From positions 5,056,001-5,120,000 of the forward strand of contig CM000151.3 in NCBI GenBank assembly GCA_000004695.1: DNA of 64,000 bases, read 5' to 3'. Made by a program: the position numbers and the translations under genes. Every line of letters begins with the position of its first letter. Position 1 is the first letter of the stretch. This DNA comes from Dictyostelium discoideum. Taxonomy: Eukaryota. Positions 28,300-62,465 of the stretch are shown here, in pieces. The notes under the pieces are model-generated. The model searched no databases. It saw nothing but the letters and a program-made list of their open reading frames with translations, and was not told the DNA's origin.

Positions 28300-31200
28300 T
28301 AAATATTTTATTTTAATTTTATTTATTTATTCTAAATATAGAATATTTTTATTTATTTTTTATTTCTATTTTTATTAAAATATTTTTTTTTTTGTTTTTT
28401 TTTTTTTTATATAATAGGAAGCAATTCAAACTTTATTATCAGTTATATCAGTTATAGTATTTATATATGGTACATATAGTAAAGGATCACCACCATTAGC
28501 ATATTCATGGGTAGAAATTTCTTTAACAATTTTCTTTACAATTCATTGGATGTTAGATTACTTTATTAGTAAAGATAGATTAAAATATTTATTTTCATTC
28601 TTTTCAATAGTTGATTTAGTAACAGTTTTACCAATTTATATTGATATTTCAACTGGTCAATTCTTTAATGAATTAGGTACTTTTCAATTTTTACGTGTAT
28701 TACGTACTGTTAGAATTTTAAGAGCAAATAGAGTATTACATTATTTTAATGGTAAATAATTATAATAATTATAATAATAATAATTTATAATAATTTATAA
28801 TAATTTATAATAAAATTTTAACATATATATATATATTAATTTTTATTTTATTTTTTATTTTTAGATATAACACAATATTTATTTAGAGTTGTAATTGCAA
28901 TTTTTACATTTATTATGATATTTGCAGCATTTTATATGAATATTGATGTATCACCAATAACGGGTAAAACATTAGAATTTCATGAAACAATTTATTTTTT
29001 CGTTGTTACATTAACAACTGATGGTTATGGTGATATTCATCCAACAAATGCAGTTGGTCAATTAACAATAACATTAGCGGTAGTTGTTGGTGCTGTATTA
29101 ATTCCATATCAAGTTTCAAGATTATTAGAAACTTTTTCATCATATTCTCGTAAGTATAATAAATTAATATATTTTTAATTTGTTATATATACACACTATA
29201 TAATTATATAATTAGTATTAATATTAATATATTTATTTTTACAATTGAAAAATATAAGCATATAAAAGAGATTTATCAAAAAGTAATTTACATGGTCATG
29301 TTATATTATGTGGTGATATAAATTTTACATCATTATTAGAATTTTTAACAGAATTTTATTTAGAGAAATATGGACAATTGAAAAAGACAATTGTAATTTT
29401 ATCAACAAATCCACCATCTGATCAATTGAAGATGTTATTGTTACATCCATTCTATAAGAATAGGATATCCTATTTGGAGGGATCCCCAATGCTTGAGAAT
29501 GATTTAAAGAGGGCCCGTTATATTCATTCGTCGTCATGTTTTATTTTCAGACCGTTGTTTTGGGAGGACGGTGATTCGACGGCGATTTTAACGGCTTTGG
29601 CAATGAAGAATTTGAAGCCTAAAGGATCGAAAATTTTCGTCCAATTATTACATCATGAGAATAAGTATAAAATTTCTGCACGTATAAAATACATTATGTG
29701 TATTGAGGATTTCCGTAACGGTATTCTAGTTCAAAGTACCCTCTGTCCTGGTTTCGGTACTTTAGTTTGTAACTTATTCACATCACGTCAACCTGACATT
29801 GGTGATGAAGATAAATGGATAGGTGAATATTGTAATGGTAGTGTTAATTCAATTTATAAAATTCCTGTCCCCTTAGCATTTGTTGGTGAAACTTTTCTTC
29901 ATGTAACTTCTGTTATGTATTCTGGTGCAAAAGCTTTAGTTTTAGGTTACATTGATGATTTAAATCAAAATCAAAATCAAAATCAAACACCAAATAATAC
30001 TACGACCAATGGTAGTAGTGGAGGTATAAGCAGTAATGGTGGTAGTAATCCAAATGTTAGAAATAGTACAAATAGTACAAACAACAATAATAATAGAAGA
30101 CAAAAAAAGAATAAATTTATAATTCATCCACCATTTTCAACAATTATAACATCAACAATGAGTTTAATTATTATTGCTCATAGTCCATCAGCACCAACTT
30201 TTAAACCAAATGTACCATCAATTATTAGAAAAGAGATGGATGATGATGAGTTACCAAAAACTTCATTTTTTCAAAATATATATAACAAATTATTTGTACC
30301 AGAAGAGATGAGACATTTTACAGATTTAAATGATTCACAAGATATTTTCTTTAATGAAGATTTAAAATCATTTTTTACTTCAACTTTTACAAATAATAAT
30401 AATACAAATATTGAAATGGATACATTTTCATCACCACAATCAACATCATCATCAACAACAACAACAACATTACCAAATCAAATTTTAATTTCTGATATTA
30501 ATAATAATAATAATATTGAAAATGATAATCAACCATTAATGGGTGTTGAAAATATACCAATTATTGTAACAACAGCAGCAGCATCAACATCAACAACTTC
30601 ACCAAATGGTACTAATGGTGCAACAAATACATCATCATTATTGGATCCAAATAATTATAATAATAATAATAATAATAGTGAAGAAGATAAAGTTTCACCA
30701 TTAGTTGCATTATGTAATGAAGAATTTGATTCAAATTGGAATGAAGTTATTGCAACAGTAATTGAATCAATTGATTCAAAGAAAGCACATATGGAAGAGA
30801 TTGTTGAAGATTTAGAACCAGTTTTAGAAGCAATTGAAAGAAATAGAAATCTTGATGAATATTCTGAAGATTCTAAAGAAGATAATAATTGGAAAGAACA
30901 TATTATCATTTGTGGTTCAATTAATAGAATTGATTTATTTATTAGAGGTTTAAGACAAAGATATATTTCTGATAATTTAAATCATTTTTATCATTTAAAA
31001 CAACATCAACATCATCAACAACAACAACAACAAAATAATCATCACCATGGTGGTGGTAATAATCATAATAGTCAAACTAATTTAAGTGAACATTCAGATT
31101 ATTCAGCACCAACAATTGTAATTTTACATCCAGAGGAACCAGATATGTCAGAATGGGATGATATTGATGATGTTTTTTATGTTCATGGCTCACCATTAGA

Positions 31201-31825
31201 AAGAAAAGATTTAGATTTAGTAAAGATTCATTTAGCTAGTAAAATTATAATTTTATCAGATCCTTATAAAGAACATCATAGTTCAAATTTAACTGATAAA
31301 ACATCTGTTCAATTGGATGCTCAAACTATTATGGCATATTTAGAGATTAGTGAAGTATTTCAAAATCATCCAAATCCTTCAAATTTCGTCACTGTTGAAT
31401 TGGTACATGAACCAAATATTAGATTCATTTCAAAGAATATTAAATCCTCAAAAATTGGTAGTAAAGTAACTGGTGGTTCTAGTAGCTCTAGAAAAGAGGG
31501 TGAGGATATTGATAAACCAAATTACTATATCACTAGTGAATTTGCCTCTGGAAAAGTCCTGACTTTGACAACGCTAGATTCATTACTATGTCAAGCTAAC
31601 CATCAAGAGTATCTCTTGGATGTCGCAAATGAATTGGTATTGGGTGTAAATGGTATTAGAAAATATTATAGAAAATTAATTAGAAATATTTCAGATTCTG
31701 ATTCTGATGATTCCGATACTGCTGCAAATAAAAATAATAATGATTATGACTATGATGATACTGATAGTAGTGATGATGAAAAATCATCATTACCAAATGT
31801 TTCAAATAGTAATAGTAGTATTAAT

Positions 31826-31910
<85 letters not shown>

Positions 31911-32290
31911 GTAATAATGGTTCAAATGCTTTATTATCACCTTCTCGTAGTTTTGGATATAAAGGTTTCAATTCAAGATTATCTCAATCAGGAATTTGGA
32001 ATCACCATCATCACCACCATCATCACCATCATCACCACCATCATGGTGGTAATCATATTAATCCAAATCAATGCCTTTTAAATCAAATTAAAGTTCCATC
32101 TCAATTTCATGGTCATCTTTATTCAGAATTATTCGAAACTCTCATACATAAAAATATTTTACCACTTGGTTTATATAGGTGTAAAGAAATTACTGGTGCT
32201 CCAAATTCTTACGTTTTCACTTGTCCTCCAGTTGATACAATTTTACATGAAAAAGATTTAGTTTATATTTTATATAGACAATCAAATTAA
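28018..32290 (+). CDS. Slo/BK-like potassium channel (6TM voltage-sensor + K+ pore + RCK domains); 4 exons approx join(28018..28239,28418..28751,28865..29149,29259..32290), ~1290 aa
   Basis: S1 is in exon 1. S2-S4 are in exon 2 (S3 FISKDRLKYLFSFFSIVDLVTVLPIYI; S4 FLRVLRTVRILRANRVL). S5, pore and S6 are in exon 3, with the selectivity filter TLTTDGYGD. RCK1 begins in exon 4 (LHGHVILCGDINFTSLLEFL...TIVILSTNPP...ILTALAMKN). A long C-terminus follows with poly-N, poly-H and Ser/Asp runs. Junctions are ATT|GTAAAA, G|GTAAAT and C|GTAAGT, with T-rich AG acceptors. Confidence 0.8.
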
Positions 32291-40697: not shown

Positions 40698-43600
40698 TTA
40701 AGGCTTTAATAAATTAGTTGACTCGCCATTAGTTTCGTCATCTTCTTCGTCATCACTACTTTCATCTTCATCAAAATCGTCACTATCATCATAATAATTA
40801 TTATTTAATTCTTCAAAATTTGTTTTTGATTCTTCTTCTAAAATTTTTTCAATTTCTTTTACATTATTATTATTATTTTCATTATTTTCATTATTTTCAT
40901 TATTATTTTCAATATTATTTTCATTATTATTATTAATTTTTGATTTTTTTACAATTTTATCAGTTCTTGATTGTTTTTTATCTTTTTTTGAAAAAATTCC
41001 ACTATCTCTTGAGAAATCATCATCATTATAGATATGATCTTGATTATAGAGGAAATAAGAGTTTGAACCAAAGAGAGTAGTATTTGAATTCTTTCTACCT
41101 TTTTTACCTCTTGAAATGATGTAAAGGTAATGTTGAAGTGAATCAATGATTTGATAACGATAGTTTGAATAGAGGATATAGACAGCATGTAAAAAGAAGA
41201 TAATTGAACTTGAGATTACAATCCATTGTTCAATCGATTGATAGACTGTATTATCGAGATAAACACAACAAATAAAAAGAAGTGATAATGAAGTGAGCTC
41301 TAATCTATTATCAGAGATACGTTTAAATGGTTGATATTTAAGTTGAAGTAATACAGATACTAAACTGACCACTACCAATAGGAAAGATCTTGCTGCCGAT
41401 GTTGGATCCATAGTTGACATTAAAATGATTAACAATCTACGAAGTAATAAAATTACATCCCAAAAGTAAAATGAACTCTTATACTTTAATATAAATACAC
41501 CATAGGTACGTTGAGTGTGTGGGTCATCCAATGATTTACGATTTAAGAATAATAAAATCATAAGAATCAATGGGAAACCAATAATAACAATCAATAGACA
41601 ATAACTGACCATCAATGCTTTATGATATTGGTCAGTATAACAACTAACACCATTATTGGCAATTAACACATAAGCGGATACCCCAACATTTTCACAAAAG
41701 AATAATTCAAATGTTGCTTTACCAATTGGTGTATAAATATTAAGCATTAACTTTATAAATGCACCCAATTGTTGACTAAGGAATGTTTGATTACTTGGTA
41801 TAGCGGTTGCATTATCAATTAGAGTAACTTGTGAACTTAAACTACCAGAGATTGAGGTTTCGATTGATTTACCAAGTATTGAATGTTTTCCACCATCTGC
41901 AATTGTTGAATAACCATCACGAGATAAATCACCATCATTTGTAGTTGTATTAGTAGAATCAAAAGAATCATCATCATCATTTTCTAATAATGGTTGTTGT
42001 TGTTGTTGTTGTTTTCTTAATAAAGATTTTCTTTCTAAACTTTTTTGTAATGATGAATTATTGATTGTACCAGGATCTGATGTAACTATAATTGAAGAAT
42101 AATTTGAAATTGATTTACTTTTTTCAATATCTTCTTGTTCTTTAATGATTTTATTCTTTAATTTTTGAATTAATTTATATCTATAGACTATATAGAAAAA
42201 AACCGTTGAAATAAGTAATACAACAATTAACCATGGAGCTGAAAGTAAGGTGAAATAATGTTGTTGATAATAATCGAATGGACCAGGACAAATACCAAAA
42301 ATACTTGATGAGCCACCTGGTTGAAATTCAAGATTTAGTAAAGCCAAGAAATTGAATTTAACACCAGTTGAAAGTACCATAAGAGTTTGTGCGAAATAAA
42401 TGATAACTGTCATAAGACCAGATTCTGAATCAGAACTTTGTACCAATACGATCATACCAATAGATACTGCAACGATGGCAATGAATAGAATGGGCGATGT
42501 TTTATCACATCTTTTACAACCTTCACCCCAATCATAATAACCAGGATCACATTGAGCACATAATGGACCAAAACTATATGGGGCACACATATCAGATGTA
42601 TTACTACCAATACAATTTACATTTGGACATTCATATAAAACATAGGGTTTATCAGTTTGATTGACATCATACCACCAACCTTCGAATTGATTCACTTTAG
42701 CACCACCTGGACAATAGGCATGAATTGATGGACATTGAACACAGGTTTCACCATTGTAACCATAGGAACCAGTACGACATTCAGTACATTCAATCTTTGT
42801 AGTGGATGGAATTTGACCAGGACTGCATTTCAATACATTACTTACAGTTTGATTCACTGGTAAATTTGGGTTATTACTAAGGAATTCAACATCAACTGTT
42901 GTATTGATCGGACCATAGAGAGTTGTATTTGAAAAAATGGCAATACCATTATAGGTTGAGGTGGAATCAATTGTATTACCAGAAATTTGAAGGAAAATTT
43001 TCACTTCAAAACCAGATACGATTTGACCTTCTTCATCTTTGATATAGATTCTACCAGAGTATGTATCTTGACCTGATCTGAAACTTGAGGGGAAAGGATC
43101 CTCTACATCGATAAGAGCAGCATCGGTTGCAGTATTATTTCCATAGGAAGCAGTATTACCAGAGAAAATGGCATTATTCTTTATGGTTGGACCTGGTGTA
43201 CTACTATAGAAAATAACACCACCACCTCCACTTGCAGAATTATTCTGATAGATACCTCCATCTATGGTAATTAAATTACCAGCGATAGTGGTTGAGATCA
43301 CACCACCTTGTTTAGCGAAATTTCCAATGGCTGTACAATTATCCAATACCACTGAGGAGAATGTAAATATACAACCACCTAAAATACCTGGTGAACGATT
43401 ATTTTGAAAGAGAACATTTTTAAAAGTTGATGTACTACCTTCATATTGTGTAAGAATAGAATTTGTAGAGGTATTTGAAAAATTATCAATAAATTTGGAA
43501 TTGATAACGGTTAAATTCGATTGACTAAGTAAATTTATAATTGTATCTGTATTTGATGAGAAAACACTATTTTCAATTAAAACATTTGAAAGTGGACTAA

Positions 43601-45896
43601 TCATAAGGAATTGAGTGATTGAATTTTCAATTAATGAACCAACAATATGAATCTTTGAGAAAGAAGAATAGAAAAATCCATTTAGATTTGAAAATATTGA
43701 ATCTATAATCTCAACTTGACAATCTTGGAATACATGACTTCCAATGGAAATGTCATCAAATAGTGTCGAGGAAATACTAATTACAGTTTGAGTTGCATAG
43801 AATGAACCTTTAGAATTGGTGATATTTGAATCGAATAATTTAAAACTACCAAAGAATAAATAGATGGTATAATCATTACTTGTATTATAAATGGATGATT
43901 GTGATAATACTAAATCACTATCGGATGAAGAAATTAATGAATTTGTTATACCAATATTTCTTATGATAGTGTTGAAAATATTCACTTTTGATAATTCCAT
44001 AGCGAAAATTGCTGCACCAATATTACCATTTGAATCTTCAATAACTACATTTTGAATGGTAACACTTGAACCTTGACTAATATAAATATTACCACCTGGT
44101 CCACTTTTTAAATTATTTCCTTGGAAATTGGTATTGGAAATATTTGAAGTACTACTGATAATACATAATGCACCATTATTAATACCACCGATATCGCAAT
44201 TGTTAATGGTAGATGATTGTGTACGAGAAAGCATAATTGAGCATAAACTTGCCCCTTCAATTGGTTCAATACCTTGAATATTACTATCTTGCATATTAAA
44301 ATCACTAGTTTCATCCACTAATATATTATATAGATTCTCTGTCATTGTACAATTTACCAATGAAATGGTTGGTGAACCACCAAAACCCAACATTGATATT
44401 GCTGGTCCAAAACTTGCAACTTTAGAACATGAACAATTTTGTACCAAAGTATTCTCTAAAATTAATGCTGCATTACCTCTTGCTGAAATACTACCCCTAT
44501 TTTGACTATCTGCATTACTTGTAAATATACAATTTGAAAAACTTGCAACAACATTTCCCTCTATAAATAATGCTGCTCCACCTGGTGAATTATCTGATGA
44601 ATATGCATATCCAACTGTAATACCTTTAACATTTATATTAATACTTTTTGAATCTGGTGATGATGAACTATCACTACCACTTTCACTACCACTACTACTA
44701 CTACTACTACTACTATCACCACCACTACTACCACCACTACCACTAATTGATGAAGTTATTAAATTTGAAGAGATATCAAAGTAAGATTCCATTTGTCTAA
44801 ATCTTCCTCTTCTTGATGGTGATGTTAAAAATAAATCTTGTGGTTGATTTGAATAAGAAATTTTAAATAAATTTAATTGATATTCACCGGATAGAATACA
44901 TTTAGTTGGATCACCACTTTGTGAAATAATATTGATTGAACGTGAAATTGGTAAGTATGAAGCCAAATTACAATAAGTACCATCTGCTAAATAAATGGTT
45001 CCATTAAAATCCACTGAATTTAATGCTTGTTGAATTGTTGAGAATGGTGCAACTGAAGTACCATTACCATATTTATCGGAACCTTTTGCAACATCAACAT
45101 AAACTTCTTCTGGCATTGTAGCTGCTGGTTTTCTAATGATTACAGAACCAATTCTAAAACCACTTTGTGATGTACCACCACCACCACCACCACCACCTCC
45201 ATTATTAGTGTATGATGTTGTAAATGCGATATTCACTGTTGATGGTAAAAATGATTCCAACGGAACACGTTCAAGATCACCTAATAATAAATTACCATTG
45301 TAGGATGCAACGGGTCTATTATCGACATAAACATTCAATACTGGATTAATATTAGTTTCAAATTGACTACTAAGGAAATATTCTAAATAATATTGTTCAT
45401 TTGGTAGAATTGGTGGTAAACTAACTGTTTGCCATAATGTACTGGTTTGAGTATTTGGATCACTTTCGTTATATAAAAATTGAGCATAATAATAACCTGC
45501 TAATGAATAGGCTGATGAGCCACACATATCATCTGTACAAAAACTAACTGAACTAGTTGCTTTCCATGGTGATGTTGCACTAATATTTGGATGTGAACTT
45601 GCAATTACTGAAAATCCCCAATCACCAACAATTGGTTCTTCCATTTCTAAATTTAATTTTTTAATTTTTTTAACATTAATAAATAAAATTAAAAATTAAA
45701 AATTAAAAATAGAAAATTAAAAATAGAAAATTAAAAAATAAAAAATAAAAAATAAAAAATAAAAAATAAAAAATTAAAAATTACCTGAACAAGTATATTG
45801 TGGTTGTTGTGAAAAAACAACATTTTCATTTAGTAATAATACAATTAACAAAAACAATGTTGTTATAAATTTTGGGTTTAAATTTCTTAAAATCAT
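40698..45896 (-). CDS. Very large membrane protein: signal peptide, right-handed beta-helix (pectin-lyase/PMP-repeat-like) ectodomain, growth-factor-receptor-type Cys-rich module, ~9 TM helices, acidic poly-N tail; 2 exons approx complement(join(40698..45646,45785..45896)), ~1686 aa
   Basis: Exon 1 (MILRNLNPKFITTLFLLIVLLLNENVVFSQQPQYTCS) ends G|GTAATT. The 138-bp intron ends AAATTTAG. The split codon gives E-MEEPIVGDW... in frame with the 1648-aa ORF. The ectodomain repeats are rich in N, G and S (NCTAIGNFAKQGGVIST..., IYQNNSASGGGGVIF). The Cys-rich module reads CSPGQIPSTTKIECTECRTGSYGYNGETCVQCPS...CAQCDPGYYDWGEGCKRCD. Multiple hydrophobic helices follow. Confidence 0.7.
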
Positions 45897-46095
45897 TTTT
45901 TTTTTTTTATTTTTTGATTTTTATTTTTTATTTTTTGTATATCCGGGAAAAAAAAAAAAAAAAAAATTAAAAATAATAAAAAAAATTAAATAATTATTTT
46001 ATTATTTTAAATATTGTAGTTTTTAAAACTACTAGAGATAGTTTTTTGGTCAACCTATTGTTTTAAATAGATATGTTTTAAAGTATTGTTTAATT

Positions 46096-46137
<42 letters not shown>

Positions 46138-46225
46138 GGTTGAGTTTTTCGCAATCAGAAAAAAAAAAAAATAAAATAAAAATAAAAAAAATAAAAATAA
46201 AAATAAAATGCTTATTAAATTTTCG

Positions 46226-46241
46226 AGTGAATACATTCACT
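46226..46241. promoter_or_regulatory. Inverted repeat AGTGAAT-AC-ATTCACT in the divergent promoter between the large membrane-protein gene and the STAT gene
   Basis: 7-bp perfect arms with a 2-nt spacer, sitting in a GC-containing island inside a poly-A region. Confidence 0.25.
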
Positions 46242-46248
46242 TGGTCTC

Positions 46249-46296
<48 letters not shown>

Positions 46297-46750
46297 ACTA
46301 AATTTTAAAATTTTGGCAAATAATTATTTTAAAAATTGATGATTCTTATTTAAATCTAATAAATAAAATCATTGAAAAAGGGTTAACAAAAATAGAAATG
46401 AAATAAAAACAAAGGGTCACTATATTGAAACCGACCAAAAATGTGTTAATTCCAAGAAAATTCAATGTTATTTTAAAAAATTTTATTCAATTTTTTTTTT
46501 TTTTATTTTTAATTTTTTTTTTTTTTTTTTATTTTTTTTATTTTTTTTTTGAAAATATTTTCATTCAAAAATAACTCTTTTATATTTTTATTTATTAAAA
46601 TATACACACATACATATATAAACGGTTAAACAAATAATTTTATTTGTATTTTATTTGTAATATAAATTTTTATTTAATTTTTAATTTTATTTTTTTAAAT
46701 AGTAGTAGTAGCAAAAACAATAATAATAATAATAATAATAAAATAACAAA

Positions 46751-46826
46751 ATGTCTCAAAGGGAATGGACAACAGCATCTACAAGCGATTTAATGTCGAA
46801 TTTATTAAACAATCATAATTCAAATA

Positions 46827-46875
<49 letters not shown>

Positions 46876-46886
46876 TAACAATAATG

Positions 46887-46943
<57 letters not shown>

Positions 46944-48003
46944 GCAATAACCAACCATTATTAAGAAATGCAAGTACAAATATCTTTTTTGGTGACGACT
47001 GGACTAAACAGAATACAGTTGGTTTATTATTAGACCCGTTAAATAGAGGTACAAGTTTTTCAAATTTATTAAAATCACCAACAATATTAGGTGATACACA
47101 ACAATCACAACAACCACAATCTCAACACACCATGCAACAATTATTTGCAAATGACCCAACATATCAACAACATCAACAAGAACAAGAACAACAACATCAA
47201 ATGATGGGAAATACAACATCACCAAAATCATTTAACCCATATGTTGGTTTATCACAACCAATGATTGTAACTAATACTGGTAATTTTAATACAACAACAA
47301 CTACTACAACTACATCAAATAATAATAATAATAATAACAATAACAATAACAATAGTAATAATAACAACAATAATAATAGTATGAATATTAATGCAAATAC
47401 ATATGAAGATGGTGAAGATGAACCAAAAACACCACCAACACCATCAAATGAACCAATTAATTGGGATATGCCAAATTATAGACAAAATACAGCATCATTC
47501 CATGCAGATATTAATATTAACAACACTACAAATTCACACCCAACTACATTATCATCGATGATGAAGAATGAAATACCAACATATAGCGGTCAAGTATCAA
47601 ATGAATATGAACAACCAACTAAATTCCAAAGAATTTCAACCTACAACGAAGAATCATTAAATGATAGACTTAGAGGCGATAACACAGGTAGCATTAATTT
47701 CTTACAAGCTGAAACATCTAAACTCAGATCACGTCAATCCTCACAAGATGATCTCGAAAGAAATAGATCATTCCAAATGACTCATTACGACACTGGTTGT
47801 GTACCAATCAGTACAGATTATTATAATAGTCTATTAACACGTTACAATAATAGACCCGAATTCTTTGAGCGTGCAAAAGAAAATCAAATTCAAGTTATCA
47901 ATAATAATAATGTTCAATTAGCTATTGATCTTCAAAATATTTATACTTCAATGAAAAAAGATATTGATGAAGAAAATAATGAATTAAAAAATTTATTAAC
48001 GTA

Positions 48004-48036
<33 letters not shown>

Positions 48037-49276
48037 AAATTAAATATTCAAATATTTATTATTATTATTTTTTATTTTTTTTATTTTTAGAATAAGAATT
48101 TTAGAACCATATGATTTAAGAAAGATTAGAGAATGTTTAGAAGGATTAAAATCACATCTTAGAATTGTTGATGTATTATATAATGAATTAAAATATGTTT
48201 TGAATAGAAAGAAACCAGAATGTTGTGCAGCATTGATTATAACACAACAACCCTATTCTCAAGTTATTTTTAGAGGAGGAAAAGGTATGGGAGAAATATT
48301 TAAGGTTCAAATGATATTTGGTGTACTTCAACCCGACAATATCTCACCAGTTTATGCAACCATAAACAAGAGTGAGAGCAATCCAAATTCAACAACCAAA
48401 AAGGAAAAACCAACTACTACACCAACATTAGAGAATGCAGAGGCAAGTTTAAACACTCAAACTTGGGAAGCCGAATTTAAGAATATCAAAGTGAACGTAT
48501 CAACTCGTATGACACCATCGAGTTTGAAATTTGTTGCAACCTACAAAGAGAAAACATCTGGTAAAACCGTTGAAAAGGATGTCGAAAGTGTGCCAGGTAG
48601 TCCGATCATTGTTATCACCAATGAGTCACAATGGGCAGAAGCAGCAGGTAAACTTTTAATAGCGGATGCATTTGCACATCGTGATGAAATCACATGGGAA
48701 ATGTTTGCAAATGTACTTCATAGTCACATTTTAACAGCAACTCATCAAACTTCAGAGATTAAAAGAAAACTTCATTCTTGGGAATTTGAATATATTCAAA
48801 AGAATTATTTCGATGGTAAGGTTACAGTTAGCAAATCAGAGTGTAAAACATTTTGGGATCGTTTTGGTCCAATCCTTCAAACTATTCATTTCAAAAGACA
48901 TATTGAACCATTATGGTATAGCGGTTTAATCTATGGTTTAATCACAAAGAGCGAATGTAATAGTTATTTAACAACACTCCCCGAGGGTTCTTTCCTCATT
49001 CGTTTTAGTGATAGTGTACCAGGTGCATTTGCTGTTGCTTATGTAACAAACGATGAAAGTGACCGTGTTAAACATTATCTAGTCAAACCTGATGATATTG
49101 GTGCAAATAAAACTTTACCAGACTTTCTTCGTGAACGTCATCAATTTAAAACACTTTATCAAGTTGATCCTTCAAAGAGATCTTTACATCCAAAATCAAA
49201 AGATGCAGAGTTAGAACCTTATTATTCAAAAAGACTTAAACAACAACAAACTAACCCTGGTTATGTTTCTTTATAA
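46751..49276 (+). CDS. STAT-family transcription factor (Dictyostelium dst-type STAT; DNA-binding + SH2 domains); 2 exons approx join(46751..48000,48091..49276), ~811 aa
   Basis: The SH2 domain is clear (WYSGLIYGLITKSECNSYLTTLPEGSFLIRFSDSVPGAFAVAYV...VKHYLV). The STAT DNA-binding and linker region lies upstream (CAALIITQQPYSQVIFRGG..., LLIADAFAHRDEITWEMFANVL). The N-terminal half is poly-N/Q-rich. The intron runs AC|GTATGT to TTTTTAG and gives T-IRILEPYDLRKIRE.... The C-terminus has candidate Tyr sites (EPYYSKR...GYVSL). Confidence 0.8.
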
Positions 49277-49557: not shown

Positions 49558-50884
49558 ATGTCAGAAATAGATACAAATGATATAAAAAAAGAGATGGATA
49601 ATAAAAATTATAGGGATCCTACAGATAATAAGGAATTATTAAAATGGACTAAAAAAAAAAGAAAAAGATCAAATGATTCAATGCATATTAATAATTTTTA
49701 CAGATATAATCCACCAAATTTTAAATTATTAGCAAGTAAATACCCAACCTTTGATAAATAGTATGATAAGTTTTTCAAATAGTCATTTTATAAAACCAAT
49801 TAGATCATCGCTCTTATTGTTAATTCATTTTTAATAATAATAATTATAATACTAATAAAAAAAATAAAAAAAGTATAATAAATAAAACGGAAAAAATTTA
49901 TAATATAGATTGGAAGGATTCAAATGCAACTAAAGAATTAACAAGAGTATTACTTGATCATGATTTTGGTTTAAGAATTGAATTACCTGATAATTATCTT
50001 TGCCCAACTTTAACTTTAAGAATTAATTATTTATATTGGATTTCTGATCAATTAAAAAATTTAAAAATAATATTAAATGATAATGATAATGATAATAAAA
50101 TAATAAAAGGAATTGATATGTATGTATTTAATAAAATAGTAATAACATAACATTTTTATTTTATTTTATTTTATTTTATTTTATTTTATTTTATTTTATT
50201 TTATTTTATTTTAACTAATATAAATAAAAAAGAGGTACTGGTACTTCATGTATATTTCCACTATTAGGTGCAAAGTTATTTAATAATTGGTCATTCATTG
50301 GAATTGATATAGATGATAAAGTATTAGAATATGCTCAAAATAATATTACTATAAATTCTCTAAATTCAAAAATAACATTATTTAAAAATGAAAAGAATAG
50401 TGATATATTATTAAAATTATTAAATTATAAAGAGGGGAGTAATACTTTTAATTCTAGTAATGATGATCATCAAGATAATCATGATGATGATGATGATGAT
50501 GAGGAATACTTTGCAGATTTTTGTTTATGTAATCCACCATTTTTTAAAGATTTAAATGAAAATAATAATAATAAAAATAATAATCCAAAATCAAATTGTA
50601 CAGGATCAGTAAATGAAATGGTTACAGATGGCGGGGAATTTGAATTTGTAAAAAGAATAATTAAAGAATCATTTCAATTGAAATGTAAAATTCGATTTTA
50701 TACAACAATGATTGGTAGAAAAGTTAACCTAAATCCATTAATCAATATATTAATTAAACAATATTATTTACCAAAAAATCAAATACAAACTACTGAATTA
50801 GTTCAAGGTAATACATCAAGATGGGTATTATCTTGGTACTTTTTAAATAAATCTACAAATTTAGAAACTAAAGAAAATAATAAT

Positions 50885-50921
<37 letters not shown>

Positions 50922-51005
50922 TTAATAATAATAATCAATTTTTAACAAGAATGGAGAGAAGAAAATTATATAGAGAGGGGATAACATTGAATTTGGATAG
51001 TGATG

Positions 51006-51092
<87 letters not shown>

Positions 51093-51298
51093 TTGTAGAA
51101 ATTATAAAATTAATATTAGATAATAATGATATAATTTATAAAACAGATGAAAATAATATAAAATATGAATGCAAATATTTATTAAATAATGTTATAGTTG
51201 GTTCATCAATTAAATTGGATAGAGATATTGAATTTTTATTTACAATTTTTATAGATTTAACTACAAGATTGATATTGTTTAAACCAATTGACCCCAAA

Positions 51299-51393
<95 letters not shown>

Positions 51394-51490
51394 TAATAAT
51401 AATAGTTGTGATGGAGAAATTATTAATTCAAATTTATTTTTTATTTTAAAATTTTTGGAAAATATTAAAAATGAAATTAAATTAAAATAA
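49558..51490 (+). CDS. METTL16-like RNA N6-adenosine methyltransferase; 3 exons approx join(49558..49760,49874..50119,50233..51490)
   Basis: Aligns with METTL16: NFKLLASKYPTFDK, then (junction TA|GTATGA...AAAAAAG) YIINKTEKIYNIDWKDSNATKELTRVLLDHDFGLRIELP. Then (AT|GTATGT...AAAAAAG) IGTGTSCIFPLLGA, FCLCNPPFF (the NPPF catalytic motif), MVTDGGEFEFVKRIIKES and RWVLSWYF. There are large poly-N inserts. Confidence 0.8.
50155..50213. repeat. (TTTTA)n pentanucleotide microsatellite in intron 2 of the METTL16-like gene
   Basis: About 11 tandem TTTTA units. Confidence 0.8.
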
Positions 51491-54970: not shown

Positions 54971-57900
54971 AGCATTTGAAGATGCAAATATTAAACCATC
55001 AACATTACGTGGATCAGATACAGCAGTATTTATTGGTATGATGAATCTTGATTATCAAAGATGTCAATTCAGAGATATATCATATATTAATCCGTATACA
55101 GTTACTGGTAGTGCAGGATCATTTGTATCAAATCGTTTAAGTTTTAGTTTTGATTTACGTGGTCCATCAATGACACTTGATACAGCATGTTCATCATCAT
55201 TGAATGCAGTTTATCTTGGTTGTCAAGCTATTGCAACTGGTGATAGTAAGATGGCAATTGTTGGTGGTGTCAATGGTATTTTCGATCCAAGTATTTCAAT
55301 GACATTCTCTGGATTAAATATGTTGGGACACAAAGGTCAATGTAGATCATTCGATGCTGGTGCTGATGGTTACATCCGTAGTGAAGGTGGTGGTGTTTGT
55401 ATCCTAAAGAAATATTCAGATGCAATTAAAGATGGTGACCGTATTTATTGTGTTATCAAAGGTGGTAGTTCAAATGTTGATGGATACAATGCAAAGACCA
55501 ATATCACTCAACCATCAATGAAGGCTCAAGGTGAAAACATTGAAATTGCTTTAAAGAAATCTGGTGTAAATCCATCAGATATCTATTATATAGAAGCTCA
55601 TGGTACTGGTACACCAGTTGGTGATCCGATTGAAATTGAAGCAATATCAAGAATATTCAAAGATAATCATACACCCGATGCTCCATTGTACATTGGTTCA
55701 GTTAAAAGCAACATTGGTCATCTTGAAAGTGCTGCCGGTATTGCATCATTAATCAAAGTTGCACTCTCTTTAAAAAATCGTTCATTGGTTCCAAATATTC
55801 ATTTTGAAAAACCAAATCCATTAATCAAATTCGAAGATTGGAATATTCGTGTAGTCACTGATGAAATCCAGTTCCCAACCAATAAATTAATTAATATGGG
55901 TATTAATTGTTTTGGTCTATCTGGTTCAAATTGTCATATGATTCTAAGTGAAGCACCAATTAATTATGATGAATTATTGAAAACAACAAATAATAACTCT
56001 ACATCCTCTTCTTCAAATGATGATAAAAAAGAATATTTAATACCATTTTCAGCAAACTGTAATATTTCATTAGATAAATATATAGAGAAATTAATTTCAA
56101 ACCAATCTATTTATAAAGATACAATATTATTTAAAGATTTTGTAAAACATCAAACAATTTCAAAATCAAATTTAATAAAGAGAAAAGTTATAACCGCTTC
56201 CGATTGGGATGACTTTTTAAATAAAAGAAATGAAACTACATCAACTTCATCATTGACTTCAACAATTTCAGCACCAGCTTCATCAACTCCAGTCATTTAT
56301 GTTTTCACCGGTCAAGGCCCACAATGGAGAGATATGGGTAAAGCATTATATGAAACTGAATCAGTATTTAAAGATGCCATTGATCATTGTGATAAATTAC
56401 TTGCTAATTATTTTGGATATTCAATACTCCAAAAGTTACGTTCATTAGAAAGTGATGATTCACCAGAAATTCATCATCCAATTTTAGCACAACCAAGTAT
56501 TTTCTTAATTCAAGTTGGTTTAGTCGCACTTTATAAATCATTTGGTATTTCACCATCAATTGTAGTTGGTCATAGTTTTGGTGAAGTTTCATCCGCTTTA
56601 TTCTCTGGTGTCATCAGTTTAGAAACTGCTGTTAAAATCGTTTACTATAGAGGCTTAGCTCAAAATTTAACAATGGGAACTGGTAGATTATTATCAATTG
56701 GTATCGGTGCTGATGCTTATCTTGAAAAATGTGCTTTATTATATCCAGAAATTGAAATAGCTTGTTATAATGATCCAAATTCAATTGTTATTACTGGTTC
56801 TGAACAAGATTTGTTAGGTGCTAAATCAACACTATCAGCTGAAGGTGTTTTTTGTGCTTTCTTAGGTACACCATGTTCTTTCCACTCATCAAAACAAGAA
56901 ATGATTAAAGAAAAGATATTCAAAGATTTATCAGATTTACCAGAATCAAATGTACCATGTGTACCATTCTTTTCAACAATTACTGGTTCACAATTATCTC
57001 ATAAAGGTTTCTACAATGTTCAATACATTTATGATAATTTACGTATGCCTGTTGAATTCACCAAAGCCATTTCAAACATTTTCAATTTCATTGAAGAAAA
57101 TGAATCATACAAGAATGCAATCTTTTTAGAGATTGGTCCTCATCCAACTTTAGGTTTTTATATTCCAAAATGTAAACCATCAAATTCAACAATAACTTCA
57201 AAACCAATTATAGTATCACCATTACATAAAAAGAAAGAAGAATTAACACAATTTAAATTAGCAATTTCAACTCTATATTGTAATGGTGTTGAAATTGATT
57301 TTGCAAGTGGTCAACAATTATTACCAACTTCTTCTTCATCCGGAGGTGGCGATATATCATCATTTAAAGAGTCGACAAATAAATTACCAAGATACCAATG
57401 GGATTTTGAAGAATATTGGGATGAACCAAACCAAAGTAAAATGGTAAAACGTGGTCCATCAAATAATTTATTAGGTCATGATCAATTTGCAGGTAATACT
57501 TTAATGGAATTATTTATTGATATTAATAAATCTGCTCATCAATATCTAAAAGGTCATAAAATTAAAGGTAAATATCTTTTCCCAGGTTCTGGTTATATTG
57601 ATAATATTCTTCGTCAATTCAATGGTCAAGATATTACCATTTTCAATTTAGAATTTTCAAATCCATTCTTTTTGAAAGATGGTGTTCAACATCATTTACA
57701 AACTTCAATTACACCAACTACCAAGGGTGAATTTAAAGTTGAATTCTTTATAAAGGATAATAGAAACTCAACTAAATGGACTAAAACTTCAAATGGTCGT
57801 ATTGGATTATTCAAACATAATCCAAAGAATAATAAATTGGATATTGAAAAACTTAAAAGTCAATGTTCATTTACCACCCTTACAAAGTCTGAAGTTTACA

Positions 57901-60900
57901 ATAAGCTATTGTTATTAAGTTTACCATATGGTCCAACTTTCCAAAGAGTTGAATCATGTTCAATTGGTGATGGATGTTCATTCTTTAAACTTTCAATGTC
58001 ACCTTGTTCAGAGTTTGACAAAGATTTCTTAAATCCTTCAATTATTGATTGTGCATTCCATGGTTTATTAGTACTCAGTGAAGGTCCACAAGAGATTGTT
58101 TTCGATCGTTTACAAGATATGAAATTCTATTCTTCAAATGTACCTTCAACAAGACCTCAATTCATTTATGCCTTTGCTAAATTCGATAAAATTGTAGGAA
58201 ATTCAACTCATGGTTCTCTAGATATCATGTTAGAAGATGGTACATTATTAATTTCAATTAAAAATGTTAAATGTACATCATTAATACGTTTAAAGAAACA
58301 ATCAATTAAATATCCTTCACAAAATGTTTATTCACACCATTGGCAATCAAAAGATTCACCATTAACTTTAATTGAAAATCAATTAATTGAAGAGAAATCA
58401 TCAGAATCTAAAATTAATTTTGAAAAATTATTAAATGATAAATTATTTAATGATTATTTAATTAGATTATTAAACCAATCAATTAAATCTGAATTTATAG
58501 AATTCGATTATAAAACTTCAACAGTAGATACTTTAGAAATTGATTCAAATAATACAAAACTATTAGAAAAGATTCAATCAATTTTAAAAACAATTGATTC
58601 ATTAGATCAATCAATTGATTTAGCTAGTTTAAAACAAGTAATTATTGAAAAATCATCATCATTTAAAAAAGAAATTAATTTAATTGAAAAATCAATCAAA
58701 CGTATTGTTTCATTATTAAAAGGTGGTGAAAGTGAACATTTTTCACCAAGTAATCCAAGTTCACCAAATGACACACCAAGATATAATTCAAACAATTGTT
58801 CTTCAAAGAGTAATAATACCTCTAGTGGTGCTGATGATGATACTAACAATGAAGAAACAATTAATCAATTAAATAATGAACCATTTAATTTCTCAAATTC
58901 TCAATTCATTTCAAATCAAAATCAATTAATTTCAAAAACAATTGTAAATTCATTTGATAGATTAATTAATTCGATTGAAATTGGCGAAAAGAAATTAATT
59001 AAAATAATTGATTTATCAAGTATCTATCAAAATAATCAACTTTCAAAATTATTATTATTACAATTAAATCAATTACTAATTAATTTATCAAATAATAATA
59101 ATATTGAAATTGAATATACAATTCCATCAAATACCAAAAATATTGATTCAATTAAAGAAGAAACTAAATCGATTTCAAATTTATTAAATATTAAATATCG
59201 TAGTTTTGATTTACAAGATGATTTAGAAAGTAATGGTTATTTAAATTCAAATTATGATTTAATTATAACTTCTTTATTATTAGTTTCAACAAACTCAATT
59301 GATTCAAATGAAGTTTTATCAAAACTTTATAAATTATTATTACCAAAAGGTCAATTAATTTTAATGGAACCACCAAAGGATGTATTATCATTCAATCTTT
59401 TATTTGCAAATGATTTCAAACAATCATTAGAAATTAAAAGTGAACAAGAAATTAAATCATTAATTAGATATTGTGGTTTCACTAAAATTGAAACAAATAA
59501 TATTACCCAAGATGATGAAGAAGAACAACAACAACCACCATCAATTTTAATAGTTCAAACTGAAAAGAGAGATATTGAATCAATGTCATTGACTTTCTCA
59601 TCAGATCCAGAATCATTAAATTCTTCATATAGTAATTGTATATTCATAGTTTCAAAAGAACAAAAAGAAAATCCAACTTCATATATTCAAGAATATTTTG
59701 ATATTACTGAAGTATTCTGTGATAACACTACAATTATTGAAGCTGGTGATAGTGAATTATTAACAAAGACAATTGAATCAGGTATTGGTAAAAATGATAT
59801 TATTTTCTTTTTAGTTTCACTTGAAGAATTAACAATTGAAAATTATAAACAAGTTACAATGCAATATACATTAGTTAATCAAATACTTTTAAGAAATAAT
59901 CTTTCAACTAGATTTGCTTTATTAACTTACGATTCTCAAAATGGTGGTAAAAATTATTTAGGATCATCATTAATTGGTACTTTTAGATACTTTTTAGAAT
60001 TTCCATCATTGAATACCTTTTCAATTGATGTCGATAAAGATTCAATTGATAATCTTACATTATTCTTACGTTTAGTTGATCTATCTACAATTGGTGATAG
60101 AGAAACTATTGTTAGAAATAATAAAATTTTTGTTCAAAAGATTTTCAAAGAGCCAAAATTGTTATCACCATCAAATAATTACGAAAAGGATACAAATAAT
60201 TTATATTTGAATACAAATAGTAATTTAGATTTTTCATTCCAATGCAAAGAGAAATTACCACATGGTTCCGTCGAAATTAAAGTTATGTCAACTGGTATCA
60301 ACTATAAAGATAATCTTTTCTATAGAGGTTTATTACCACAAGAAATCTTTACAAAAGGTGATATTTATTCTCCACCATTCGGTTTAGAATGTGCTGGTTA
60401 TATTACACGTGTTGCACCAAGTGGCGTTACTCGTTTCAAAGTTGGTGATCAAGTTGTTGGTTTTGCAAGCCATTCTTTAAGTTCACTAGCTATTACTCAT
60501 CAAGATAAAATTGTATTAAAACCTGAAAATATTTCATTCAATGAAGCTGCTGCCGTTTGTGTAGTTTATGCAACAAGTTATTATTCAATTTTCCATATTG
60601 GTGCATTTATGGCCGATAAAGAATCAATCCTAGTTCATTCTGCAACTGGTGGTGTTGGTTTAGCAACTTTAAATCTTTTAAAATGGAAGAGAAATCAATT
60701 GAAAAAACATGGCAACTCTGAAATTAGTAATGATGCTTCAATTTATGCTACAGTGGGTTCTAAAGAAAAAGTCGATTATTTACAAGAGAAATATGGTGAT
60801 TTAATAACTGCAATTTACAATAGTAGAGATACTGAATATTGCGATGAAATTAAACAACAATCAGCACAAGGAGGTGTAGATTTAATTTTAAATACACTCT

Positions 60901-62465
60901 CTGGTGATTATTTATCTGCAAATTTCCGTTCACTTTCCCAAGTTGGTAGAATTATGGATTTATCAGTCACTCAATTGGTTGAAAATGATTCATTAGATTT
61001 TTCAAACTTTAAGTATCATGTTACTTACAGTACAATCGATTTAGAAAGAGCTACAACATATAATTCAAAAATCGTTAGAGATATCCTCACAGAAGTATTT
61101 GATGCAATTTCTGATGGTAGTCTTGAAAATATTCCAGTTAAAGTTTTCCCAGCAACTCAAGTTAAAACTGCGATTGAATATATTAATGAACGTGTTCATA
61201 TTGGTAAAATTGTAGTTGATTTTGAAAACTTTGAACAAGATATTCTTAAACCAGCTTTACAAGAGAAAGAAAATCCAATTCAATTGAATAAAGTTAAAAA
61301 ATTGGAACATACTTGTGATACTTTAAATAATACAATTTTAATCACTGGTCAAACTGGTATTGCTGTTCATATTTTAAAATGGATTATTTCTGGTTCTGTT
61401 TTAAATTCAAATAAATCACAACAACAAGTAACAGATTTCATAATTTTATCAAGATCATCATTAAAATGGGAACTTGAAAATTTAATTAATCAAACTAAAC
61501 ATAAATATGGTGATAGATTTAGATTCCATTATAAATCTGTAAATATTGCAGATTTAAATTCAACTCGTACTGCAATTGATCAAGTTTATTCAAGTTGTAA
61601 AAATGTTTCACCAATTAAATCAGTATTACATTTTGCAACAGTTTATGAATACATTTTACCAGAAGATATCACTCAAACCGTAATTGATAATACTCATAAT
61701 CCAAAAGCAGTCGGTGCAATTAATTTACATAATCTTTCAATTGAAAAAGATTGGAAATTAGAAAACTTTATTCTCTTTTCATCAATTGGTGCTATCATTG
61801 GTGGTTCAAAACAATGTGCATATAGTAGTGCTAATTTAGTATTGGATTCATTATCAAACTATAGAAAGAGTATTGGTCTTGCTTCAACTTCAATTAATTG
61901 GGGTGGTTTGGATGCTGGTGGTGTTGCCGCCACTGATAAATCAGTCGCAAGTTTCTTAGAGGGTCAAGGTATTTTATTGGTTTCTTTATCAAAGATTTTA
62001 GGTTGTCTTGATTCAGTTTTCCAACCATCTAATTCCCATTTATCAAACTTTATGCTTTCAAGTTTCAATATTGATAATCTTTTATCTTCTGCACCTCAAA
62101 TGAAGAGAAAAATGGGTCACCACCTAACAAATTATAAAACTTCATCTGCTAGCTCTGATGATTCATTGGGTGATTCTAGTTCTACTCAAGCAAAAGTCAT
62201 TTCTACAATCTCTGAATTATTATCAATTCATCCATCAAAATTAAATTTAGATACAAGATTAAAAGACTATGGTATTGATTCTTTATTAACAGTACAATTA
62301 AAGAATTGGATAGATAAAGAATTTACAAAGAATTTATTCACTCATTTACAATTATCATCAAGTAGTATTAATAGTATCATTCAGAGAATTAGTTCAAAAT
62401 CAACTTCAACATCTACTCCCAATCCAACTAACACCACAAAACAAACCGCAACAACAAAAACATAA
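54511..62465 (+). CDS. Type I iterative polyketide synthase (KS-AT-DH-[degenerate C-MT]-ER-KR-ACP); 2 exons approx join(54511..54829,54973..62465), ~2600 aa
   Basis: KS: [14 protein letters not shown], intron G|GTAAAT...[48 protein letters not shown]: GHSFGE. DH: HxxxGxxxxP-type region ([20 protein letters not shown]). A methyltransferase-like remnant reads [14 protein letters not shown]: [14 protein letters not shown]: [15 protein letters not shown]: [12 protein letters not shown]. The gene ends after the ACP. Confidence 0.9.

Follow-up and report, generated by a model that had tools for sequence, protein, structure and literature searches.

We analysed a window of 64,000 nucleotides (nt) of Dictyostelium discoideum DNA (assembly GCA_000004695.1, contig CM000151.3, positions 5,056,001 to 5,120,000 of the forward strand), and all positions given below refer to this whole stretch. 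At 40,698 to 45,896 it holds the gene of a large membrane protein, UniProt Q86I19, whose public annotation is "transmembrane protein" only. One long minus-strand open reading frame (ORF) lies in this region at 40698-45644, with a GC content of 0.26-0.35 inside the ORF against 0.12-0.18 in the AT-rich surroundings. Reading of the sequence gives a minus-strand gene of two exons and one intron, spliced into a product of 1686 amino acids (aa; Table 1), and the translation of exon 1, from the upstream ATG at 45896, opens with MILRNLNPKFITTLFLLIVLLLNENVVFS. In an exact-sequence look-up this product was identical to XP_643780.1 (EAL69813.1, Q86I19) of D. discoideum AX4, and therefore the intron call and the coordinates are right; the original prediction, made by a model from the letters alone, had given the same limits and strand and a clean intron after the signal peptide. 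An artefactual ORF is ruled out by this exact match and by collinear orthologues across the Dictyostelia. The locus is a real, ordinary, correctly delimited and already annotated gene, not surprising as a feature of the genome. By profile comparison, the C-terminal part of its product contains the core shared by the cysteine repeat modular proteins (CRMPs) of Apicomplexa and ciliates, and Q86I19 belongs, as a member not yet characterised, to a receptor-like family that is known but poorly understood. The original prediction had described the architecture as no standard receptor class, which has to be corrected in this respect. In the literature search Q86I19 was named only by PMC9815656 and its preprint. 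Searches on DUF7630 (PF24633), and on any Dictyostelium beta-helix or PMP protein, found nothing relevant, and in a survey of dictyostelid G-protein-coupled receptors (GPCRs) PbH1 appears solely as an entry in the abbreviation list.

The membrane part and the ectodomain were modelled separately with AlphaFold2 (AF2). For the membrane part (aa 975-1570, on an alignment of 42 module sequences, called A2 below), the model has a mean predicted local distance difference test score (pLDDT) of 82.2 and a predicted TM-score (pTM) of 0.76, and it shows 3 + 6 = 9 transmembrane (TM) helices, seven of which were detected by simple hydropathy as well. Three TM helices, a poly-Q and acidic loop, about six more helices and an acidic, N-rich tail had been read from the sequence before, and this layout agrees with the model: the loop is mostly disordered (about aa 1225-1319 with pLDDT <50), and the tail consists of 21% N and 28% D+E. 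In the Synstelium orthologue P0003 there are only ~12 aa between TM3 and TM4, and the poly-S stretch of the ectodomain is skipped by orthologues, being missing from several of them, which indicates that both segments are lineage-specific insertions; low-complexity insertions are common in D. discoideum. The TM4-TM9 block includes a beta-hairpin on the outside, with C1355 and C1373 on either side of it, a cytosolic motif YG.F.LKYK..FYFWD....LRR, and a motif QPF.....N.LE. Over 117 modules, the conserved positions outside the Cys-rich stalk are Q1124 of TM2 and P1477 (98% each), C1157 (97%), C1355 and C1373 (95% each), P1396 (92%) and N1484 (90%), followed by Y1426 (86%), R1440 of TM6 and E1487 (85% each) and W1433 (78%). 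If the N-terminus is taken as outside, lysine plus arginine in the loops counts 17 inside vs 4 outside, and all three loop Cys (C1157, C1355, C1373) lie outside. The predicted topology is thus with the N-terminus and the ectodomain outside and the C-terminus in the cytosol, and it agrees with that of TgCRMPa, which was determined experimentally (PMC9670195). A sequence search of PDB with the TM region gave no match, a profile search of PDB matched the Cys-rich part only, and in the PDB comparison of structures no solved structure resembles the TM fold, the best GPCR and rhodopsin matches being at noise level.

Just before TM1 stands a Cys-rich stalk with 13 Cys at aa 978-1084, each of them 76-100% conserved in the 117 homologues, and AF2 folds it into small beta-hairpins. 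It had been taken for a furin or GFR-type module; the Cys-rich nature is confirmed, but the type appears closest to the ephrin-receptor, ELAPOR and DUF7630 units. Among the 42 relatives the Pfam matches are DUF7630 (23 sequences), TNFR_ELAPOR1_6th (16) and Ephrin_rec_like (13), while Furin-like_2 matches one of 42 weakly (E 0.045). The query alone gives a weak match to a TNFR_ELAPOR1-type Cys unit. Against PDB, the stalk profile found Mst1 (E 2e-5), ELAPOR1 (E 4e-5) and, weakly, the Cys-rich domains of Eph receptors. The likeness to the ephrin-receptor, ELAPOR1 and mastigoneme Mst1 repeats (GCC2_GCC3, TNFR-like) is limited to this disulfide-ladder module, since those proteins are secreted or single-pass, unlike the nine-pass Q86I19. 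The last Cys unit of the stalk, with its Cys 89-100% conserved, corresponds to Pfam DUF7630 of the CRMPs, and the Tieghemostelium orthologue P0007 matches DUF7630 at 9.8e-7.

The relation to the CRMPs was approached through a Babesia "GCC2 and GCC3 domain containing protein", which the module profile matched with E 1.5e-43. This protein carries Pfam DUF7630, DUF7631 and Ephrin_rec_like, and the match thereby pointed to the CRMPs. The sequences of the TM cores of TgCRMPA and TgCRMPB were then taken from S2 Table of PMC9815656. In hhalign, A2 aligned with the TgCRMPA core with a probability of 99.7% and E 1.4e-26; the 346 aligned columns begin in the last Cys unit and reach as far as TM8. With the TgCRMPB core the probability was 98.1% and E 1.1e-13. 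Even the query alone found TgCRMPA in BLASTP (E 6e-14, over the TM4-TM9 block), and the TgCRMPA core matches DUF7630 at 8.7e-18 exactly at the juxtamembrane Cys unit. By these alignments, the core of Q86I19 is homologous to the conserved core of TgCRMPA and TgCRMPB, with an identity of only about 20-23% to the CRMPs. In silico, Q86I19 shows what characterises a CRMP, namely a nine-TM core, a DUF7630-type unit before TM1, and a signal peptide with N-out/C-in orientation. The CRMPs compared (TgCRMPA/B, PfCRMP1-4 and those of Tetrahymena) likewise have a signal peptide, a large modular and adhesive-looking ectodomain, a juxtamembrane Cys-rich, EGF-like unit (DUF7630), N-out/C-in topology and a cytosolic tail, and the legend of Fig 1B in PMC9815656 lists a parallel beta-helix repeat among their domains. 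The ectodomains differ, being CBM-like plus PMP beta-helix in Q86I19 vs arrays of MAR, Kringle, lectin and EGF in the CRMPs. CRMPs are known as heterodimers of two paralogues in complex with TSP-domain partners, with MIC15 and TSP1 as partner proteins; D. discoideum has a paralogue of Q86I19. PMC9815656 also names Q86I19 as a structural CRMP homologue, stating from AlphaFold Database models that the nine TM domains resemble those of PfCRMP2 and that the extracellular parts differ.

How far this module extends was surveyed by an exhaustive phmmer search with aa 975-1570 against 1.84 billion cluster representatives. It found 4250 representatives with E<=1e-3; of these, 466 reached E<=1e-10 and 21 reached E<=1e-30. 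For the best 150 of the 4250 plus six sequences from the whole-protein search, 154 sequences in all, the whole module is present in 118, typically over 430-500 aa at the C-terminal end. The whole-protein search, a word-indexed one, gave six matches; it scored no more than the 8000 candidates with the largest number of shared words, and low-complexity words are suspected of having dominated this pool. A word-indexed search with the 42-sequence module alignment gave three. Orthologues were found in D. citrinum, Tieghemostelium, Synstelium, Heterostelium and Cavenderia, and D. discoideum itself has a paralogue, DDB_G0284913. The members named from the Dictyostelia are from Tieghemostelium, Heterostelium, Acytostelium, Polysphondylium, Cavenderia, Synstelium and D. 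purpureum; the Blastocladiomycota contribute Allomyces (annotated "polymorphic outer membrane protein") and Sorochytrium, and further members come from the ciliate Muranothrix, the malawimonad Gefionella, Rigifila, the green alga Ostreobium, and Babesia. A Pfam scan of 33 full-length members found on this module the ectodomains Beta_helix, Chlam_PMP, LRR, ANF_receptor/periplasmic-binding, EGF/teneurin-EGF, Notch LNR and Ephrin_rec_like. Judged from these matches, the Cys-rich plus nine-TM module belongs to a very large pan-eukaryotic family with interchangeable ectodomains. Receptor families show just this pattern, in which the core stays constant and the binding domains vary. While PMC9815656 calls the CRMPs apicomplexan-specific, the nine-TM core is, by the same matches, pan-eukaryotic. 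The Pfam match to the citrate transporter family CitMHS (E 4e-4, 20 bits vs a cut-off of 31.9), which occurs in one of 42 members only, was rejected as a compositional match of TM segments. As a side observation, three beta-helix, CRMP-like paralogues of Heterostelium album, P0009, P0010 and P0013 (PPL_08771, EFA78115 and PPL_08769), share a contig of 2.26 Mb and have near-consecutive accessions, pointing to a tandem cluster at this place; two of the three are misleadingly named in UniProt/NCBI ("Pol" and "PIN domain-containing protein") and may be fused gene models.

The ectodomain was modelled from aa 39 to 1085 on an alignment of 24 amoebozoan, fungal and unassigned relatives, and the model is all-beta, with a mean pLDDT of 81.4 and a pTM of 0.70; besides the parts described below it includes a small disulfide-rich region. 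The signal peptide of the original prediction is seen as a hydrophobic peak at aa 9-30. About 1000 aa of beta-helix repeats had been expected to follow; the beta-helix is there, but its length is ~615 aa, the rest being two beta-sandwiches and a poly-S/G insertion. In the model it is a long ladder of short strands with pLDDT mostly >85, and Pfam Beta_helix (PF13229) matches aa 679-863 of the query with 34.2 bits, above the cut-off of 25.9, so that both the profile match and the stacked rungs of a right-handed beta-helix are found. Its N-terminal cap bears a DUF1565-like motif, VYVDVAKGSD..GT..PFSTIQQAL (the DUF1565 match itself is weak). Within the helix, the motif GG[AGCV][ILVA] was observed 5 times vs 0.29 expected and FxxN 7 times vs 3.6 expected. 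Tandem repeats at the DNA level, searched by Tandem Repeats Finder (TRF), are confined to the intron and to two parts of the coding sequence, the poly-S region and the N/E-rich tail, which argues that the beta-helix is an old, diverged structural repeat rather than low complexity. In the ectodomain model pLDDT falls below 50 in two segments, namely a run of poly-G and aa 304-369, which are poly-S/G. The N-terminal sandwich matched in a Foldseek comparison with PDB the CBM61 structure 2xom (E 3.6e-4, prob 1.0, target TM-score 0.70), as well as CBM32, CBM6 and MAM domains. For the second sandwich, the weak Pfam match to MG4 (aa 899-974, E 0.064) is treated as a hint of the fold only. The ectodomain is predicted to have a lectin-like and adhesin-like fold. 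It carries 21 N-glycosylation sequons, in keeping with its predicted position outside.

Table 1. Features of the Q86I19 gene and its product, with positions in the window and residues of the protein
Feature	Window positions	Residues (aa)	Strand	Details and basis
Exon 1	45785-45896		minus	112 nt; ATG at 45896; ends at GT
Start codon and signal peptide, in exon 1	45810..45896	1-29	minus	hydropathy peak aa 9-30; exact match to XP_643780.1
Intron, single, GT..AG, AT-rich, with 7/14-nt tandem repeat	45647-45784		minus	138 nt; in-frame join; spliced product equals annotated protein
Exon 2	40698-45646		minus	4949 nt; TAA stop 40698-40700
N-terminal beta-sandwich, CBM-like / galactose-binding-like, contains the poly-G run	45120..45557	~68-213	minus	AF2, Foldseek
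Right-handed parallel beta-helix, PMP-type GG[A/C/V][I/L/V] and FxxN motifs	43155..45002	~253-868	minus	Pfam, AF2, Foldseek, motif counts
Poly-S/G low-complexity insertion within the beta-helix region	44652..44849	304-369	minus	pLDDT <50; unaligned in orthologues; TRF 3/6-nt repeat
Second, membrane-proximal beta-sandwich	42834..43133	~876-975	minus	AF2; weak Pfam MG4; kept in Ostreobium relative
Cys-rich module, ephrin-receptor / TNFR-ELAPOR-like	42507..42827	978-1084	minus	Cys conservation, Pfam of relatives, PDB profile search
TM1-TM3; near-invariant Q1124 in TM2, C1157 in outside loop	42189..42494	1089-1190	minus	AF2, conservation, topology count
TM1		1089-1108
TM2		1115-1129
TM3		1163-1190		runs on as cytosolic helix
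Cytosolic TM3-TM4 loop (132 aa); K-rich start, then poly-Q/acidic/S-rich	41793..42188	1191-1322	minus	AF2; Synstelium orthologue
TM4-TM9	41154..41792	1323-1535	minus	AF2, conservation, BLASTP to TgCRMPA
TM4		1323-1351
TM5		1376-1405
TM6		1433-1448
TM7		1455-1475
TM8		1481-1501
TM9		1507-1535		runs on as cytosolic helix
Cytosolic C-terminal tail: helical extension of TM9, basic patch, N-rich and D/E-rich low complexity	40701..41153	1536-1686	minus	AF2, composition, repeats

Regarding what such a protein does, we think it reasonably probable that Q86I19 is a type-I-oriented, nine-pass, CRMP-like membrane glycoprotein which acts as a contact or glycan sensor and relays through its core. A carbohydrate-binding or adhesion sensor had already been proposed, and it is a reasonable reading, to which the fold matches to CBM61, CBM32, CBM6 and the beta-helix lend support and in which the function itself stays conjectural. 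For this mechanism, the ectodomain would bind a glycan or a surface, be it bacterial prey, the cellulose or sheath matrix, or another cell. The binding, or the force transmitted by it, would be relayed by the nine-TM core to the cytosol; the core might conduct Ca2+ or other ions, which has been reported of S. pombe Pkd2, or it might signal to partner proteins by a change of conformation. Apicomplexan parasites use CRMPs to set off secretion when they meet the host. The output may be an event set off locally, for instance regulated exocytosis, by analogy with the CRMPs of Toxoplasma, which are required for rhoptry discharge and invasion, and those of Tetrahymena, which are needed for the stimulated release of mucocysts (PMC9670195, PMC9815656). 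Taken with the Pkd2/Flc data described below, this analogy suggests a contact-triggered, probably Ca2+-linked, secretory or membrane response.

Several points weigh against this reading. What suggests glycan binding by the modelled ectodomain is similarity of fold. The query's own match to DUF7630 is sub-threshold (E 3.3), it has no match to the fungal TRP-like family PF06011 even at E<=10, and the CRMP and PF06011 links in Pfam come through profiles and intermediate sequences. The literature search found no functional, localisation or expression data for the gene. Surface localisation, as opposed to an endomembrane one, is assumed here, and S. pombe Pkd2 is located in the endoplasmic reticulum as well. 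To our knowledge, Dictyostelium has no rhoptry- or mucocyst-type extrusomes, and the analogy with exocytosis may not transfer.

The alternative that survives best, possible though on the unlikely side in our judgement, is that the nine-TM core is a Ca2+-permeable, force- or ligand-gated channel of Pkd2/Flc type, with the beta-helix as a rigid extracellular tether, i.e. a tethered mechanosensor. The fungal Flc proteins belong to PF06011 (PMC9600462). The members of our family which exceed the PF06011 cut-off of 28.5 bits do so over the block aligned with TM4-TM9: the Ostreobium relative P0006 scores 49.8 bits over residues aligning with TM5-TM9 of the query, and in the single protein P0040 a PF06011 match of 34.2 bits, aligned to the TM4-TM9 block, occurs along with Chlam_PMP, DUF7631 and DUF7630. 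At E<=0.1, PF06011 is matched by 11 of the 42 module sequences. Pkd2 of S. pombe is placed in PF06011 too, as are its paralogues, Trp663 and Trp1322, and yeast Pkd2 and Flc have Ca2+- and turgor-related phenotypes. For the three S. pombe proteins the predicted layout is signal peptide, beta-rich extracellular domain, nine TM helices and a tail that is disordered (bioRxiv 10.1101/2022.08.11.503631), and PMC9727806 reports that Ca2+ permeability of Pkd2 is activated by membrane stretch. Q86I19 has this layout too, from the signal peptide and the extracellular domain to the nine TM helices and a cytosolic tail that is disordered, and it shares it overall with the Flc/Pkd2 proteins of S. pombe, S. 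cerevisiae and Cryptococcus; these, however, have neither a giant ectodomain nor a Cys-rich stalk of the DUF7630 kind. The near-invariant polar residues in or next to the membrane (Q1124, R1440, N1484 and E1487) also speak for a channel. Against it stand the lack of a direct PF06011 match in the query and of the ML-like TRP_N domain (PF14558), which is not matched in its Pfam scan, the ectodomain being CBM-like plus beta-helix instead; besides, channel activity of the PF06011 fold is still without a structural explanation. A word-indexed search with a TM4-TM9-only alignment, aimed at the fungal PF06011 proteins, gave no match. We nevertheless find the core of Q86I19 to be related, through intermediate sequences, to PF06011 as judged from these profiles, and the occurrence of DUF7630, DUF7631 and PF06011 in single proteins suggests that Pfam splits one nine-TM superfamily in two, with the fungal part annotated as a family and the protist part left without a model. 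The voltage-sensor-like and pore fold of a classical six-TM TRP channel was not found, and this candidate was rejected.

A second alternative takes the ectodomain as a membrane-anchored polysaccharide hydrolase or lyase, for remodelling of the matrix or digestion of prey walls, and the TM block as an anchor or as a device for handling polysaccharide. The beta-helix does match such enzymes in PDB: the top Foldseek matches of the ectodomain model are GH87 alpha-1,3-glucanases (E 5e-7 to 1.5e-6), a PL6 alginate lyase and the depolymerases of phage tailspikes (pertactin is matched as well), and a CBM with a beta-helix is typical of the architecture of carbohydrate-active enzymes. However, the global TM-scores of 0.11-0.25 and identities of 7-12% mean that these matches reflect the generic beta-helix fold, and no catalytic motif was identified. 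The PMP-type motifs GGA(I/L/V) and FxxN are typical of adhesins (PMC2997323), and the relatives fuse the same core to the non-enzymatic LRR, ANF receptor and EGF domains, which speaks for the ectodomain position as a slot for ligand binding. An enzymatic role of the beta-helix is therefore less likely than a binding one, and we consider this alternative improbable. The right-handed beta-helix with these two motifs is shared with the chlamydial Pmp proteins and pertactin, and relatives of Q86I19 match Chlam_PMP; nevertheless, the anchor is a eukaryotic nine-TM, alpha-helical core vs the beta-barrel of the Pmp autotransporters. As a Chlamydia Pmp autotransporter Q86I19 was rejected, having an alpha-helical TM part at its C-terminus, no beta-barrel, and no Chlam_PMP match. 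Finally, a divergent GPCR of adhesion type is very improbable: the large adhesive ectodomain before a multi-pass core, a PANTHER suggestion for TgCRMPa and PfCRMP1 raised in PMC9670195, and weak matches to NCD3G, the Cys-rich domain of family-3 GPCRs, in 7 of 42 relatives would fit it, but the helices are nine rather than seven, no 7TM family of Pfam is matched, and the NCD3G matches fall within the Cys-rich stalk rather than the membrane part.

The rest of the window contains several other genes. The divergently transcribed neighbour at 46751-49276 (+) resembles a Dictyostelium STAT gene: an N/Q-rich ORF at 46751-48043 is followed by an ORF at 48200-49276 with STATa Ig-like, EF-hand-fold and SH2 domains, and the two are probably exons of one gene. 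Between it and the Q86I19 gene, the intergenic part at 45900-46300 is extremely AT-rich, with poly-T and poly-A runs of 30-45 nt, and the poly-K and poly-F ORFs listed there mechanically are meaningless. At 29378-32290 (+), ~8 kb from the Q86I19 gene, a 970-aa ORF with BK_channel_a and Slo-like RCK domains encodes a calcium-activated (Slo/BK-like) potassium channel. Further ones are an ORF at 50618-51490 (+), matching the C-terminal part of the Methyltransf_10 (METTL16-like) RNA methyltransferase family, and a 2475-aa ORF at 55038-62465 (+) for a type I highly reducing polyketide synthase (KS, AT, DH, ER, KR, ACP), whose KS match starts at profile position 140, indicating that an upstream exon is probably missing from the ORF.

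In view of the preferred reading, a CRMP-like contact or glycan sensor, the Q86I19 gene is a candidate in Dictyostelium for a sensor or adhesin at the cell surface that recognises glycans of prey or matrix. A bolder proposal, which we hold to be rather unlikely, is that DUF7630 and the nine-TM core, found in the CRMPs, in Q86I19 and in thousands of proteins of protists, algae and early fungi, would form one ancient eukaryotic signalling module related to Flc/Pkd2, a ligand- or force-gated Ca2+ conduit on which many different ectodomains have been swapped, with Q86I19 as a glycan-tethered mechanosensitive channel; if this were true, the mechanism of the CRMPs in apicomplexan invasion would become testable in a tractable amoeba. 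We know of no structure of the CRMP nine-TM core, and Dictyostelium is haploid, with easy knock-out and imaging. A clear CRMP homologue in this organism, a core which is pan-eukaryotic, and the overlap with Pkd2/Flc together give a concrete hypothesis for a cheap model. Q86I19 can thus serve as a tractable model of the CRMP core, and it gives a hint of a superfamily that may unite the CRMPs with PF06011.

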